Of a stretch of 64,000 nt of DNA, positions 5,981 to 59,949 are shown piece by piece. A program made the position numbers and the translations under genes. Each line of letters opens with the position of its first letter. The stretch's first letter is position 1. The notes under the pieces are model-generated. The model ran no database searches and had not been told where the DNA came from. It worked only from the letters and a program-made list of their open reading frames with translations. Source of the DNA: Escherichia virus TH22; the sequence record MT446396.1. One strand, 5' to 3'.

Positions 5981-6004
5981 AGGACCCTTCGGGGTCCTTT
6001 TTTA
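5981..6004 (+). terminator. intrinsic terminator
   Basis: GGACCCTTCGGGGTCC hairpin + T-run. Confidence 0.7.
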
Positions 6005-6084
6005 TTTTAAAAAGTAGTGTACAACAAGATGGTCATGAGGCATAATGATTCCATACTGAGTTACCAAATAAACTGGAGAATAAA
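6005..6084 (+). promoter_or_regulatory. early promoter with conserved leader (family B: CCATACTGAGTTACCAAA)
   Basis: AGTAGTGTACA, CATAAT -10, conserved leader, GGAGAATAAAATG. Confidence 0.55.
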
Positions 6085-6602: not shown

Positions 6603-6670
6603 GTGTACACAAGTATGGGAGCGTGGCATAATGTTCCTATACTGAGTTACCAAACAAACGGGAGAATAAA
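6603..6670 (+). promoter_or_regulatory. early promoter with family-B leader
   Basis: GTGTACA, CATAAT, CTATACTGAGTTACCAAA, GGAGAATAAAATG. Confidence 0.55.
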
Positions 6671-7195
6671 ATGGAAGCCAAATCAATCTTTAATCTGATT
6701 AATTACAATAATGGTAATTTTAAATCAGAAGCACAAAGCAAGTTCTTTAATGATGTTGCTTGTGCAGGTGAGATTACAGTATCAGGTGGTCAAACTTATA
6801 AAAACGCCTGGAACTGGATTGTGACTGTTGATTCAGTTGGTATTGTTGATGTGTATAAAAACACTAACAAAAACCGCTCTTTGTTCTGGTCAAGAGAGAC
6901 TAATGCTGAGTATCAAGCGGCAAGAGCAAAGAAAAATATGCCAACTGAATCTGATATCCAAAACATCAAATCAGATATCCAATATTATGATGGTCTGATT
7001 GCTGAACAACAAGCAGTGCTTGATAAGTTCAATGAAATCAAAGCATGTAAAGAGATTCCTGAATTCATGCGGGAATCAGTTAATGAACAATACAATCTCA
7101 CTTCAGAGCGTATTGAAACCTATACCAAACAAAGAGCAGAGCGCCAGGTACTCCTTCAGAAGTTTGAAGAGCGTTTAAAGACGGTTCTCGCATAA
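6671..7195 (+). CDS. hypothetical protein with C-terminal coiled coil
   Basis: 174-aa ORF. Confidence 0.4.
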   Translation: MEAKSIFNLINYNNGNFKSEAQSKFFNDVACAGEITVSGGQTYKNAWNWIVTVDSVGIVDVYKNTNKNRSLFWSRETNAEYQAARAKKNMPTESDIQNIKSDIQYYDGLIAEQQAVLDKFNEIKACKEIPEFMRESVNEQYNLTSERIETYTKQRAERQVLLQKFEERLKTVLA

Positions 7196-7204
7196 ACGCT
7201 TTAT

Positions 7205-7258
7205 ACCAAGGATGGTATAATGGTTCTGACCTTTGATTAATCTATTGAGGAAATTATT
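7205..7258 (+). promoter_or_regulatory. early promoter (CCAAGGATGGTATAATGG type)
   Basis: TATAAT at 7216-7221 preceded by CCAAGGATGG; same motif recurs at 9222. Confidence 0.45.
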
Positions 7259-17408: not shown

Positions 17409-17606
17409 ATGAATCCTGAATCTAAATTATCACAGCGAATTGTTGAATCTCGTCGTCAGTTCTTTGAAAATATGATAGCTCAAGGTATTGATGATGAAGT
17501 TTTTCTGAACTGGTTTTGGAATCTCTATTATTCAAAATGTGCAGGAACAATATTATTATCGGCCGCATTGATGTACGAAGGCTGGAAAGGCGCTAAAGCG
17601 CAGTAA
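17409..17606 (+). CDS. hypothetical protein
   Basis: 65-aa ORF. Confidence 0.3.
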   Translation: MNPESKLSQRIVESRRQFFENMIAQGIDDEVFLNWFWNLYYSKCAGTILLSAALMYEGWKGAKAQ

Positions 17607-17611
17607 AAACC

Positions 17612-17678
17612 AACGGGGTCATGGTATAATGACCCTAGGATAATAAAATTTTAATTTAATGAGACTGAGGAATATATC
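17612..17678 (+). promoter_or_regulatory. PeSL-type element (-10 inside a stem-loop)
   Basis: GGGGTCATGGTATAATGACCC hairpin with TATAAT in the loop. Confidence 0.5.
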
Positions 17679-35100: not shown

Positions 35101-35538
35101 ATGATTAACAGAAATTTGGTTATCAAAAAACTTCGTTGTAAAAATCCAAATGCGCAGGCATACAGGGTGTTTTGGAGCGACGAAATTCAATATCTGGGTT
35201 ATTTTCTTGTTGATAGTGATGATAGAATTACGTTTGCTCATAAACTTCTTAACAAAGAATTAAACCATTGGAAAGAACTTATTGCAGTCAAGTCTAAATT
35301 ATTTTCGCGCAATACAATGCACCAATTGGTTTATTTTTTCGCTGATGGTATTCCTGACAAGGTTGAGTTTGAAGGGTTTGAATTTAAAGACATCAACCCT
35401 GACAATGAATTGAATGACAGTATTGTTAATATGGGTATCCCTGGCAAGTACATCAAAAACAGTCTTTTGAAAATTCTGGAAAATCCTGTTTATTCAGTTG
35501 ACGACCAGATTTTTAATGCCTTCATGAAGCGAGATTAG
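35101..35538 (+). CDS. hypothetical protein
   Basis: 145 aa; C-terminus DDQIFNAFMKRD repeated in next ORF. Confidence 0.35.
   Translation: MINRNLVIKKLRCKNPNAQAYRVFWSDEIQYLGYFLVDSDDRITFAHKLLNKELNHWKELIAVKSKLFSRNTMHQLVYFFADGIPDKVEFEGFEFKDINPDNELNDSIVNMGIPGKYIKNSLLKILENPVYSVDDQIFNAFMKRD
35499..35536 (+). repeat. 36-38 bp direct repeat, copy 1
   Basis: GACGACCAGATTTTTAATGCCTTCATGAAGCGAGATTAG; near-identical to 35860..35897. Confidence 0.8.
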
Positions 35539-35539
35539 T

Positions 35540-35899
35540 ATGAGTTATTATAATTTTCTGAATTTTGAACTGGTGAGCAATAATAATGGTAATGCTCACT
35601 ATGAATTTCGTGAGCCCCGTTATAATCAGGCGATTGGTTATATCATCGTTAAAGATGGTGTTATCATAAAGGCTCGTTCGTTTATGACAATGAATGGGCC
35701 TTGTGAAGATAATCGTGGTTATCCATTTGATAAAAAGAACGTACGCGATTGTGCAGTATGGATAACCGGAAACCCTGAAATTGGGGTCATGATATCTACT
35801 GAAGCAAATGACATTCTGGAAGGGGCTTGGGTTAAAGCTCAAGAACCGCCTACTGATATTGATGACCAGATTTTTAATGCCTTCATGAAGCGAGGTTAA
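35540..35899 (+). CDS. hypothetical protein (bracketed by direct repeats)
   Basis: 119-aa ORF ending DDQIFNAFMKRG. Confidence 0.35.
   Translation: MSYYNFLNFELVSNNNGNAHYEFREPRYNQAIGYIIVKDGVIIKARSFMTMNGPCEDNRGYPFDKKNVRDCAVWITGNPEIGVMISTEANDILEGAWVKAQEPPTDIDDQIFNAFMKRG
35860..35897 (+). repeat. 36-38 bp direct repeat, copy 2
   Basis: GATGACCAGATTTTTAATGCCTTCATGAAGCGAGGTTAA. Confidence 0.8.
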
Positions 35900-41922: not shown

Positions 41923-41998
41923 GTGTACATGAAAGATGAACGGTGTATAATAATTTCATACTGAGTTACCAAATCGTCCGTAAGATGAGAAAAATATC
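41923..41998 (+). promoter_or_regulatory. early promoter with family-B leader
   Basis: GTGTACA, TATAAT, TTCATACTGAGTTACCAAA. Confidence 0.5.
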
Positions 41999-45386: not shown

Positions 45387-45644
45387 ATGATTACTTCTTT
45401 TGAAATTGGCCAACAATATGAAATGTCTGCTCTTCAAGCTGCTGAAGCAGGTCTGACTGAAGCGTTTGAATGTGCATTTACAAATATTCGTGGTAAAATC
45501 TTTACTGTCAATAAAATTGCGGTATATGATAAAGAAACAGACATGAACAAAGGCATCTACCTGAACGTGTCAAACGCCAAAGGTCGTCGTGAAATTATGG
45601 TTGTACAACCTAATCAACTGGCGATGTTCAATAAGGTTGCATAA
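45387..45644 (+). CDS. hypothetical protein
   Basis: 85 aa from ATG after family-A leader. Confidence 0.35.
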   Translation: MITSFEIGQQYEMSALQAAEAGLTEAFECAFTNIRGKIFTVNKIAVYDKETDMNKGIYLNVSNAKGRREIMVVQPNQLAMFNKVA

Positions 45645-46396
45645 TGAAACCAGAATTTATTGACTTTGATGTTGTAAGTATGTATGTTCGCCCAATTAAA
45701 CCATTAAAACTTGAGAAACAAAATATGACTATTGAAATTAACAAAACTTATCATCTGGTTAAACCTATTACTCAAAACGCAGCTATGATTTCTGGGTATA
45801 ATACTCTGGCTGATGCTTTAGGTGAAGGTGAATTTATTGTTGAAACTTTTGTAAAAAGTAACTGGTTTTATAACGCATATATTCTGCATGCACGTCGCCT
45901 TGATACTAATGAAGTAGAAAAAATTATTGTTTATGAAGCTGAGATTGAGCTCTTCAAGGAAGTTGAAGAAACTCCTATCAAAGTTGGCAAAATCTATCAA
46001 CTTGTTGGATATGGTGATTTTGATAATACTAATGCATTGAATGCCGGTTGGCGCGTACTGAAAGGTATTTTTGGATTTGCTCCATTTACCGTTAAAACAG
46101 TTAAGTACCACAATCACCAAAGCATCTTTGAATTTACTGCGGTCAATGAATCAGGTGACAATCTTGAAGCTATCCTTTATCCGCGTGAATCTGTACTGCT
46201 GGAAGAAGTTAGCGAACTGGGTGACCCTATTGACTTGTTATGTAAACCAGTTCAAATCAAACGCCCATTTAACAGTTCCATTTGTGGTTGGGTAACAGAC
46301 CAGTGGATTGAAGATGGCGTTGAACTCCTGAACGTTGTTCATGCTGGTGAATTTACTGTTGTTCCACGTTCCATGGTTGTTGAAATTTTTAATTAA
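45644..46396 (+). CDS. hypothetical protein
   Basis: 250 aa; C-terminal about 40 aa paralogous to that of 46475..46966. Confidence 0.4.
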   Translation: MKPEFIDFDVVSMYVRPIKPLKLEKQNMTIEINKTYHLVKPITQNAAMISGYNTLADALGEGEFIVETFVKSNWFYNAYILHARRLDTNEVEKIIVYEAEIELFKEVEETPIKVGKIYQLVGYGDFDNTNALNAGWRVLKGIFGFAPFTVKTVKYHNHQSIFEFTAVNESGDNLEAILYPRESVLLEEVSELGDPIDLLCKPVQIKRPFNSSICGWVTDQWIEDGVELLNVVHAGEFTVVPRSMVVEIFN

Positions 46397-46402
46397 ATTT
46401 AA

Positions 46403-46474
46403 GTGTACAAACTCTTGGGGTCAGAGTATAATGACCCCACTGGAGAATAAACTTATTAACCAAGAGAGAAAATT
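46403..46474 (+). promoter_or_regulatory. PeSL-type cassette (family C)
   Basis: GTGTACAAACTCTTGGGGTCAGAGTATAATGACCCCACTGGAG; 43 nt identical to 57280..57322. Confidence 0.6.
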
Positions 46475-46966
46475 ATGAAAGTTGAAGCTGGTGATATTGT
46501 ACGTGTTTCTAAAGAATCTCGTTCTAAAGCTGCTGGTCGTTTTGTTGAGGTTGTGGGTCTTCGCACTAATTTAGTAGGTGGAATTAAAGAAGTTAAAGTG
46601 CGTATTATTCCTAAAAATGGTCAGACTGAAACTCAATTGGCTTATGTGCATCCTAAATTCCTGGAATCAACCGAATTTACTGGGTACATCGCTCCTGTGA
46701 CCGAAGAAGTTGAAACCATTGACCAGTCTCATGTTGGGGTTGATTTTAAATGGAAATTGGGCAAAGGTGTCTTTTTTGTTTCACCTAAACCGTTTGAATA
46801 TGTTGACGAACCTTTTGGTACTTATGAAACCACTAGCATGTCTGGTTACATCACAGACCAGTGGGTTGAAGAAGGCGTTAAGCTCTATAACATTGTGTTC
46901 CTTGGAACCTTTAAGGTGGTTCCTGAAAGCTTTATCGTTGAGTATGCTGATATTCATCGTGCCTAA
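46475..46966 (+). CDS. hypothetical protein
   Basis: 163 aa; shares C-terminal module with upstream ORF. Confidence 0.4.
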   Translation: MKVEAGDIVRVSKESRSKAAGRFVEVVGLRTNLVGGIKEVKVRIIPKNGQTETQLAYVHPKFLESTEFTGYIAPVTEEVETIDQSHVGVDFKWKLGKGVFFVSPKPFEYVDEPFGTYETTSMSGYITDQWVEEGVKLYNIVFLGTFKVVPESFIVEYADIHRA

Positions 46967-50553: not shown

Positions 50554-50557
50554 CCAA

Positions 50558-50580
50558 AAGGACCTTCGGGTCCTTTTTTA
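50558..50580 (+). terminator. intrinsic terminator
   Basis: AGGACCTTCGGGTCCT hairpin + TTTTT. Confidence 0.7.
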
Positions 50581-55799: not shown

Positions 55800-55864
55800 G
55801 TGTACATCAGTATGGAGTCTATTGTATAATGATTCCATACTGAGTTACCAAACTGGAGAATAAA
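55800..55864 (+). promoter_or_regulatory. early promoter with family-B leader
   Basis: AGTAGTGTACA, TATAAT, TTCCATACTGAGTTACCAAA. Confidence 0.55.
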
Positions 55865-56721: not shown

Positions 56722-56925
56722 ATGAAACTTTTTAAAGATGTTGCAGTTGGTGAGAGCTTTGTATTACATAATGGTCAACAACTGATTCGTATTTCTCCTT
56801 TACAAGTTGGCGGCGAATTACAGCCTGTAAATGCTACAGACCTTTATGATTCAACTAAGCGTTTTTGCGTAGGCCCTAGTGTACAGTGCCTTACCGTTGA
56901 TGAACTGATGGCTATTTCTGAATAA
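56722..56925 (+). CDS. hypothetical protein
   Basis: 67-aa ORF with the same leader. Confidence 0.3.
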   Translation: MKLFKDVAVGESFVLHNGQQLIRISPLQVGGELQPVNATDLYDSTKRFCVGPSVQCLTVDELMAISE

Positions 56926-56935
56926 GGAAAATATT

Positions 56936-57280
56936 ATGTCTAAAGTATTTTTTGGTAATCGCAACATTATGTTCTTTAAACAGATTAGCGTATCAGAAGC
57001 ATTTGATTTAAGTTATTCAGGTGGTACAAAAGCTGTTAACCTTAAAAATTTGATGTCTGCAGAATTTGCATTCTATCAGGACCCTGAAACTGGTTTCTAC
57101 AAATTTATTAAGTTCCGCATGACTATGGACCGAGATTATCGCGATGTTTATTATACAAGTTATGAGAGTGTTATCAATGCAATTCGCGAAGCTTATGGAT
57201 TGGATTCGTTGTCTCTTGACCGCTTGTATAATGCTACTTTTTATACGAGCGGATTTATTTTAGAACAACTTCAAAAATAG
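56936..57280 (+). CDS. hypothetical protein
   Basis: 114-aa ORF. Confidence 0.3.
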   Translation: MSKVFFGNRNIMFFKQISVSEAFDLSYSGGTKAVNLKNLMSAEFAFYQDPETGFYKFIKFRMTMDRDYRDVYYTSYESVINAIREAYGLDSLSLDRLYNATFYTSGFILEQLQK

Positions 57281-57353
57281 TGTACAAACTCTTGGGGTCA
57301 GAGTATAATGACCCCACTGGAGCACAAAACTTTAACTTACTGAGGAAATTAAT
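57281..57353 (+). promoter_or_regulatory. PeSL-type cassette (family C)
   Basis: 43-nt core identical to 46403..46445. Confidence 0.6.
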
Positions 57354-57803
57354 ATGACTACTTACATGACCCGTCGTGACGTACTGAATGCTGGCGCTAC
57401 CACTGTTGCTTACATCCATAATGGTAATTATGTCGCAGGGCGTCCAACTAAAGAAGCTATCACCCAACCAGGTTTTTATTTCGTGGTTAAAGGTGAAGGC
57501 GAATCACGTATTGTTGCTGCACGTTTTTACGTTGGTAACCAACGTTCACAACAAGGGTTTGACACTGTATTAAGTCACATCCGCAAACAGCGTTCTCAAC
57601 TGTCTCGCACAATGGCGAACAATGGTGTTATCTATGAAGTCCTGTTTGTTCCAGTTTCTAAAATGAAACCTCTGACAACTGGTTATGGTAAAGGTCAAAT
57701 TGCGATGGCGTTCACACGCTCGCATAGTTCTGATTGCCAGACCCTTTCAGAAATGAATCGCATGCTTGCTGATAACTTTAAATTCATTCTGCAGAGTTAT
57801 TAA
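57354..57803 (+). CDS. ndd: nucleoid disruption protein Ndd
   Basis: 149 aa; position upstream of stp/52 and recalled similarity to T4 Ndd ([31 protein letters not shown]). Confidence 0.55.
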
Positions 57804-59834: not shown

Positions 59835-59858
59835 AGGACCCTTCGGGGTCCTTTTTTA
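59835..59858 (+). terminator. intrinsic terminator
   Basis: GGACCCTTCGGGGTCC + TTTTTT; same hairpin as at 5982. Confidence 0.7.
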
Positions 59859-59949
59859 TTTTAAAAAGTAGTGTACAATCCCCTTGACCCGCTGCATAAT
59901 AATTCCATACTGAGTTACACAATGAATCACAAAAACTTTGGAGAATAAA
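59859..59949 (+). promoter_or_regulatory. early promoter with family-B leader
   Basis: AGTAGTGTACA, CATAAT, TTCCATACTGAGTTAC. Confidence 0.5.

Follow-up and report, generated by a model that had tools for sequence, protein, structure and literature searches.

Composite elements in which an early promoter is joined to a stem-loop are known as PeSLs (promoter-early stem-loops). In these intergenic composites, a strong sigma-70-like early promoter is combined with an A/T-rich tract and a stem-loop, the latter generally of the form GGGG...CCCC (Arbiol et al., 2010; PMC2839356). One of the five PeSL subclasses has stem-loops "overlapping the -10 box", and recombination between nearby PeSLs was found to give mini-circles in about 1 in 1e5 virions (PMC2839356). 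In the expression assays, for which RB49/phi1 elements alone were used, one PeSL promoter reached about 13,000 Miller units and one stem-loop lowered lacZ expression like the rrnB T1 terminator (PMC2839356). The class was later extended to T4/PST and KVP40/nt-1 (Comeau et al., 2014; PMC4122927). The T4 early promoter consensus has GTTTAC at -36 to -31, and relatives favour C at -3 to -1 (PMC1524935). T4 motB is an early gene whose protein is abundant at 1–3 min (PMC6070864).

The DNA analyzed here is a 64-kb stretch (the window), which by its sequence is that of a T4-like phage of the genus Gaprivervirus (Straboviridae, Tevenvirinae). A preliminary description had drawn attention to a 43-nt segment present in two identical copies. 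Over the 2 kb surrounding each copy, the sequence matches Escherichia phages UPEC07 and TH55 at 100% identity, and SP18, VR20, VR25, VR26, and other Gaprivervirus members at 92–97%. We confirmed the identity: the 43-mer has two exact occurrences in the window (46403–46445 and 57280–57322, both on the plus strand), while by chance none is expected (0 in 100 shuffles). When A46402 and A57279 are added at the 5′ end, the exact repeat grows to 44 nt (copy 1, 46402–46445; copy 2, 57279–57322; same strand), and 48 of 50 positions match over 46402–46451 vs. 57279–57328. The copies lie 10,877 bp apart, start to start. Exact direct repeats of 24 nt or more number only four in the 64-kb window, and three of the four belong to early-promoter cassettes. 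A 31-nt exact direct repeat (35503–35533 and 35864–35894; 45 nt at 93%) is probably a tandem gene duplication; its copies, separated by 361 bp, terminate two small ORFs that adjoin each other, each copy being at a 3′ end.

Both copies occupy intergenic positions. Copy 1 is placed in a 78-nt gap between the stop codon (TAA, 46394–46396) of a gene for a 250-aa MotB-domain protein in the motB.1 position (45644–46396, plus strand) and the ATG (46475) of motB (46475–46966, plus strand), the gene it would serve. The C-terminal coding ends of the 250-aa ORF and motB are 77% identical (46279–46338 vs. 46837–46896), and copy 1 thus stands between two tandem MotB-domain paralogs. Copy 2 overlaps the stop codon (TAG, 57278–57280) of a 114-aa ORF (56936–57280, plus strand; annotated with a KTSC domain in EAWsc9) and ends 31 nt before the ATG (57354) of ndd (57354–57803, plus strand), which encodes the nucleoid disruption protein. 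Between the copies there are motB, cef, goF, 39.2, 39.1, gene 39, rIIA.1, rIIA, rIIB, denB.1, denB, and several small ORFs, all transcribed in one direction; the gene content is as given in the preliminary description, which had named a 39-rIIA-rIIB block.

Each copy matches a sigma-70 promoter (TGTACA, 17 bp, TATAAT; 10/12 to the consensus). The -35 element GTGTACA is found at 46403–46409 in copy 1 and at 57280–57286 in copy 2, and the -10 element TATAAT at 46427–46432 and 57304–57309, respectively (all plus strand). A 7-bp G+C-rich stem, GGGGTCA/TGACCCC, encloses the -10 box. According to folding and covariation, its 5′ arm occupies 46417–46423 (positions -22 to -16) and its 3′ arm 46432–46438 (-7 to -1) in copy 1; the arms of copy 2 are at 57294–57300 and 57309–57315 (plus strand throughout). 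TATAAT therefore forms the loop together with the first base of the 3′ arm, which is the last T of the box, in line with the earlier claim of a -10 box within a G+C-rich stem-loop. From the spacing only, transcription is predicted to start at A46439, 7 nt past the -10 box, and at A57316 in copy 2. Numbered relative to A46439 as a T4 early promoter, G46403 is -36, GTGTAC (46403–46408) covers -36 to -31, CCC falls at -3 to -1, and an A-rich tract is present at -44 to -40 (aaatt in copy 1, caaaa in copy 2), all of which are features of T4-type early promoters (Pe). A/T-rich tracts, ttaattaaattta in copy 1 and cttcaaaaata in copy 2, lie directly 5′ of the cassettes. We found no paper in which the transcription start of the T4 motB promoter had been mapped by experiment.

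The stem arms coincide with the spacer and the discriminator, the promoter segments with the least sequence constraint. As RNA, the cassette has a folding energy of -18.3 kcal/mol (z = -4.3), a stability reached by 0 of 200 shuffles; its minus strand folds too, at -15.7 kcal/mol. An Rfam scan of the whole window gave no covariance-model match at the gathering threshold. Promoters of the N4 virion-RNAP and F-plasmid Frpo type have elements formed only by the hairpin itself and are active on single-stranded or extruded DNA. This single-strand type was considered and rejected, as the -35 element of the cassettes lies outside the hairpin and the duplex is already a complete sigma-70 promoter.

The sequence-level features of PeSLs, i.e., an early promoter, an A/T-rich tract, a stem-loop, intergenic placement (stop 46396/cassette/ATG 46475; stop 57280/cassette/ATG 57354) and repetition, are all found at both copies. 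By these features the paired cassettes are members of the PeSL class, subclass "stem-loop overlapping the -10 box", and the earlier view of both copies as promoter plus hairpin cassettes holds, with a T4-type early promoter carrying the GGGGTCA/TGACCCC stem; that they belong to this published class went unrecognized in that description. We consider it quite probable that in these two copies a T4-like phage carries paralogous early-promoter cassettes of the PeSL type. The data show the repeat and its anatomy, orthology across genera at both sites, compensatory changes in the stem and a bias of wobble pairs towards the sense strand; promoter activity, the role at the RNA level and the cause of the identity are what we infer.

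With the PeSLs of RB49/phi1, PST/T4, and nt-1/KVP40 the cassettes share the promoter/stem-loop composite, its repetition in the genome and the adjoining small variable ORFs; like PeSLs, they are candidate sites of homologous exchange, as proposed for the class (PMC2839356, PMC4122927). There are also differences. The -35 element is GTGTACA here, whereas published PeSLs have TTGACA or TTTACW. What lies between the identical copies is 10.9 kb of conserved genes (39, rIIA, rIIB), whereas published PeSLs flank a single ORFan, and mini-circles were shown only for PeSL copies 0.4–1.4 kb apart. Gaprivervirus is outside the genera covered in the available text of PMC2839356 and PMC4122927, and the same text does not report cross-genus covariation, a sense-strand wobble bias or a constant GGA(G/U) motif. 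A further paralog, accompanied by a different upstream ORF, occurs in MN01, DK-13, P896, P8, TH44, and VR26 and is absent from the window genome. Its presence or absence beside copy 2 is the kind of cassette-associated replacement described for PeSLs. This third paralogous cassette has the stem GGGAGCA/TGTTCCC (TGCTCCC in TH44) and is located 5′ of the 114-aa ORF together with a 246-nt DUF2829-type ORF (retrieved stretches L004, 24226–24269; L005, 12589–12632; L008, 23184–23227; L009, 23267–23310; L010, 12588–12631; L033, ~715–760). The window genome has neither the third cassette nor the 246-nt ORF; instead, a 67-aa ORF (56722–56925) abuts the 114-aa ORF.

In the window, about 20 plus-strand cassettes with GTKTACA and a -10 box were found. 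Modules recur among them: UP/-35 blocks, Shine-Dalgarno blocks, and blocks of a -10 box plus leader, for example CCATCAACTACTGATGAGGA and CCATACTGAGTTACCAAA. Stems in other cassettes of the window are positioned over the -35 element (16476, 33922), between the boxes (29927) or over the -10 box (6603, 9209, 34748). At 6603–6640 the early promoter reads GTGTACA...CATAAT, and its -10 box lies inside a 13-bp stem with G·U pairs (AGTATGGGAGCGTGGCATAATGTTCCTATACT, -18.1 kcal/mol), a hairpin as stable as that of the motB/ndd cassette. A degenerate third copy of the repeat at 17600–17649 (plus strand; core 17615–17636) is located among small hypothetical ORFs in the nrdD-to-gene 49 region. Its stem arms GGGGTCAT (17615–17622) and ATGACCCT (17629–17636) surround TGgTATAAT and are followed by GGAUAAUAAAA, and the GTKTAC -35 element is missing.

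Several of the shared modules are repeated. The leader module CCATCAACTACTGATGAGGA has six copies (2501, 16485, 29927, 34748, 41188, 45326), and the -10-plus-leader module ATAATGATTCCATACTGAGTTACCAAA has five copies at 74–85% (6042–6068, 55826–55852, 41941–41974, 6622–6655, 59890–59923), the first two being identical over 27 nt. Both are conserved 5′-UTR blocks found 3′ of early promoters. A second exact 44-nt direct repeat (AGGACCCTTCGGGGTCCTTTTTTATTTTAAAAAGTAGTGTACAA; 5981–6024 and 59835–59878, 53.8 kb apart) comprises a canonical terminator hairpin with a T-run, followed by a UP-like block and an early-promoter -35 element. It fits the classic "stem-loop upstream of the promoter" form of PeSL, and its copy at 59835–59878 is located after gene 52 and before a motA.1-like ORF and motA.

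For comparison with other phages we used segments no longer than 26 kb from 12 Gaprivervirus relatives (11 with both sites, TH15 with the ndd site only), with a Hamming scan of the loci, and additional regions upstream of motB and ndd retrieved from IMG/VR by protein homology. Of the other Gaprivervirus genomes, 15 were examined at both the motB and the ndd site, and all 15 have the cassette at both. In Dhakavirus (Bp7, JS98-like phages), too, promoters with a hairpin over the -10 box occupy both sites, with different stems, GAGAGCCAT/ATGGCTCTC and GAGAATCAT/ATGGTTCTC. Kanagawavirus has the cassette at ndd (stem GAGGACA/TGTCCTC), Mosigvirus at other loci (GAGAGCA/TGCTCTC), and T4 and other Tequatrovirus 5′ of motB. 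The search of related genomes suggested in the preliminary description has in this way recovered the cassette in five genera. Its scaffold, AGTKTACAAACTCNTG...CAGAGTATAATG, is nearly invariant in Tequatro-, Gapriver-, Kanagawa-, and Mosigvirus.

A close counterpart is the T4 early promoter 5′ of motB (AGTTTACAAACTCTTGGGACCAGAGTATAATGGTCCCGTGGAG; about 7,170–7,215, minus strand), the ortholog of copy 1. Scaffold, stem register, downstream GGAG and gene are common to it and copy 1, but it differs in its stem (GGGACCA/TGGTCCC) and -35 element (GTTTAC). T4 has no second cassette at ndd; at this site T4-type phages carry only a promoter-less hairpin, followed by TTGGAG. This hairpin, GGCCG...CGGCC (T4, L016 4050–4100, minus strand; also L039–L044), has a variable loop and a covarying stem and is followed by TTGGAGTAGAAAA. 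The "hairpin + GGAG + A-rich" part thus persists without a promoter in T4-type phages.

Covariation was scored on an 8-pair stem in 26 distinct 32-mers anchored on the -10 box. Among these sequences, 97.6% of stem cells are paired and six of the eight pairs have changed on both sides; double-change cells numbered 41 vs. 11.7 ± 3.9 in shuffles (0/500). Slid registers gave only 35–49% pairing, and the pairing register relative to TATAAT is identical in all genera. The non-Watson-Crick cells comprise 19 G·U and one A·C, with about ten wobble states as independent events. On the complementary strand the 19 G·U cells would be C·A mismatches, which would bring pairing down to about 89%. The filter used for sequence collection accepted G·T; as all motB and ndd sites retrieved by protein homology or as whole loci passed it, the wobble bias is not a product of the filter. 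The sense-strand G·U bias favors a structure read in the sense (read-through) RNA over a symmetrical DNA cruciform, and indicates that the stem is selected as RNA and not as DNA.

This asymmetry bears on the idea of a DNA-level element, i.e., an inverted repeat that would be a cruciform or a recombinase or regulator site, modulating promoter melting or catalyzing site-specific cassette exchange. The -10 box is indeed located in the loop, the minus strand folds as well, and the PeSL authors speculated that a recombination protein might bind GGGG...CCCC, one crossover having been mapped by them to the loop (PMC2839356). Yet, the wobbles are almost all on one strand (19 G·U vs. one A·C), and a stem sequence that varies between genera speaks against a sequence-specific binding site. 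A 7–8 bp stem with an 8-nt loop is, moreover, short for cruciform extrusion, and we regard such an element as unlikely. It is also quite improbable that the hairpin ends transcription of the upstream gene as a canonical intrinsic terminator and only happens to overlap the promoter. Like Rho-independent terminators, the cassette places a stable G+C-rich hairpin directly after a stop codon, and the reduction of lacZ expression by a PeSL stem-loop (PMC2839356) would agree with this. However, such terminators have a U-tract, whereas here ACUGGAG follows the stem, and the terminator scan was silent on the cassette although it called true terminators, e.g., 59835–59852 and 50556–50577. Several GenBank records imply instead a small protein-coding gene across the cassettes: UPEC07 has a 32-aa ORF annotated across copy 1 (QUL77748.1; L001 2481–2579, corresponding to window 46380–46478), and VR7, CJ20, and others have "hypothetical proteins" across copy 2. 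We find this scarcely credible, as strand and frame of the annotations conflict between records, substitutions are compensatory in the stem and not codon-patterned, and the same 44 nt stand in two unrelated reading contexts. The annotated small ORFs are most likely spurious gene calls, which the cassettes attract.

As the predicted start is the first base past the 3′ arm, the cassette's own transcript would not contain the 5′ arm and could not form the hairpin. Its leader is essentially unstructured according to folding, and the complete hairpin is present only in RNA reading through from upstream. In the early-promoter reading that we prefer, host RNA polymerase would start the motB and ndd transcripts at the cassettes (predicted A46439 and A57316) immediately upon infection, giving transcripts with a GGAG plus A-rich motif at +4. 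In RNA arriving from the upstream genes, the complete hairpin would be a 3′-end element, either an attenuator or an exonuclease barrier, that insulates neighboring early units.

A constant motif follows the stem: GGA(G/U) is found 1–3 nt after it (8 nt in one case) and is followed by an A-rich tract in all 23 family members examined. The strong intergenic RegB-site consensus is GG*AGRAYARAA, and secondary structure protects GGAG from RegB (review by Uzan and Miller; PMC3014915). Both copies (GGAGAATAAAC, 46442–46452, and GGAGCACAAAA, 57319–57329, plus strand) and most of the 23 family members match this consensus at 10 of 11 positions. In the identical UPEC07 genome, the annotation places regB about 1 kb ahead of the first position of the window. 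The cassettes resemble T4 RegB target sites in having GGA(G/U) and an A-rich tract, in predicted early mRNA of a phage with an annotated regB. They differ in that classical RegB sites are part of the Shine-Dalgarno sequence of the regulated gene, whereas the cassette motif is at +4, 25–30 nt 5′ of the real Shine-Dalgarno.

In the predicted read-through RNA, the GGAG of copy 1 pairs with CUCU (46412–46415). Pairing at the hairpin base is CUCU:GGAG in Gapriver-, Tequatro-, and Kanagawavirus and CUUUAU:AUGGAG at Dhakavirus motB, so that GGAG is predicted to be paired when the RNA comes from upstream and free when the transcript starts at the cassette itself. This pattern suggests that sensitivity to RegB, and with it a putative cleavage, may depend on the origin of the transcript; the GGAG motif could equally be a fossil ribosome-binding site. 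The fullest form of the former idea is a three-part switch in at least five Tevenvirinae genera, in which the hairpin would hide the RegB motif in read-through RNA and leave it exposed in the cassettes' own transcripts. CUCU:GGAG pairing at the hairpin base would shield the motif in read-through transcripts. The own transcript, starting one base past the stem and lacking the 5′ arm, would expose GGAG at +4 to RegB, and a RegB cut would then be followed by PNK-triggered decay. We put this switch forward as a speculative and, on balance, doubtful model.

As regards the identity of the two copies, we compared the stems within the genus. In every Gaprivervirus genome the stem at ndd is GGGGTCA/TGACCCC. 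At motB, the copy is equal to that at ndd in the window genome, P8, EAWsc9, and TH40, and from GTGTACA onward also in 212, P896, and VR20, which have T for A one base 5′. In CJ20 the motB copy is T4-like (GGGACCA/TGGTCCC), and it is intermediate in PSD2001, VR25, and VR26 (GGGGCCA/TGGTCCC), DK-13 (GGGGCCG/TGGCCCC) and TH44 (GGGTCCA/TGGTCCC). These motB stem states are interleaved on neighbor-joining trees of the flanks. The upstream and downstream trees disagree, and the flanking region is too mosaic for trees to count whether the ndd-type stem arose at motB once or several times.

Recent copying or gene conversion had been suggested as the origin of the identity. A recent duplication, in which one copy was lately pasted into the other site in the lineage of this genome, would fit both the 44/44 identity and the unrelated immediate flanks of the two copies. 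It is nevertheless very improbable, as both sites are filled in the 15 other Gaprivervirus genomes and in Dhakavirus, the motB-site cassette is common to T4 and the ndd-site cassette to Kanagawavirus. The T4 motB and Gaprivervirus ndd cassettes differ at eight positions, mostly covarying pairs; as most of the 44 positions are conserved across genera, identity of the scaffold reflects purifying selection and not the youth of a copy. Could selection alone, acting at every position, have kept ancient paralogs identical with no gene conversion? The near invariance of the AGTKTACAAACTCNTG...CAGAGTATAATG scaffold in four genera and of the ndd copy within Gaprivervirus speaks for this. However, at the four or five stem pairs that are free to vary, no fewer than seven sequences occur within the family, and motB copies of sister genomes bear other, equally paired stems. 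In view of this variety at motB, GGGGTCA/TGACCCC is not dictated by selection and a chance match of all stem pairs is unlikely; selection alone is conceivable, though we would not expect it to suffice. We infer instead that the 44/44 identity results from strong purifying selection on the five-genus scaffold combined with at least one gene conversion that carried an ndd-type stem into the motB site.

The Gaprivervirus mosaic is most simply read as the ndd copy having converted the motB site at least once, with the outcome then spreading via ordinary phage-phage recombination. Less probably, the mosaic would come from stepwise compensatory mutation converging on the same stem. The gene-conversion part of the earlier suggestion is thus partly supported by the mosaic of T4-like and ndd-identical motB stems interleaved on the flank trees, while the recent timing has to be given up, since the sites were anciently occupied. 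In Dhakavirus the paralogs differ from each other at 11 positions and each from its Gaprivervirus ortholog at 14–18. These distances are consistent with concerted evolution, to which a genus-specific promoter consensus could contribute; the derived states that the two Dhakavirus copies have in common could reflect such a consensus in place of conversion.

The copies had also been described as a substrate for deletion or inversion of the intervening block. As direct repeats, they would allow deletion, duplication or circle excision of the 10.9-kb block, but not its inversion, which is impossible for repeats in the same orientation. Gene 39 mutants are of the DNA-delay type, and rII/denB deletions are classical. 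As, in addition, the T4 region from 69 to 39 is dispensable (PMC6070864), the 10.9-kb deletion might be viable but unfit. For the T4 recombination system short homology suffices (Singer et al., 1982, as cited in PMC2839356). In an IMG/VR search, neither the deletion junction (left flank of the motB site, cassette, right flank of the ndd site) nor the reciprocal junction gave a match (0 each), although rare molecules would escape assemblies. In a scan of a single metagenome, all that turned up were ordinary copies of the ndd site, located at the ends of contigs.

Escherichia phage DCP80 (141 kb), in which ndd is present twice with different genes 5′ of the cassette, was considered as a natural recombinant and rejected: an N run directly 5′ of the cassette marks an assembly artefact in a gapped scaffold. 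This "complete genome" (L052 ~2440–2490) has the N run beside the cassette and a duplicated ndd region, and the metagenome contigs OBRI01002304.1 and OBRI01002173.1 (L056, L057) both stop right at the cassette. It appears that short-read assembly breaks or goes wrong at the 44-nt repeat.

Taken for what they imply, these results extend PeSL-type cassettes, as probable organizers of early transcription, to the SP18/VR7 group, beyond RB49/phi1, T4/PST, and KVP40/nt-1. In five genera, one cassette scaffold has been kept at motB and ndd; its stem covaries around the -10 box without any shift in register. The two promoter copies 11 kb apart may be a clear example of concerted evolution. Selection of the stem at the RNA level, as indicated by the wobble bias, bears on what PeSL stem-loops are for. 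If masking of the RegB motif were true, the lifetime of the mRNA of one and the same gene would be set by where its transcription began, which would provide these phages with a built-in early-to-delayed-early timer.
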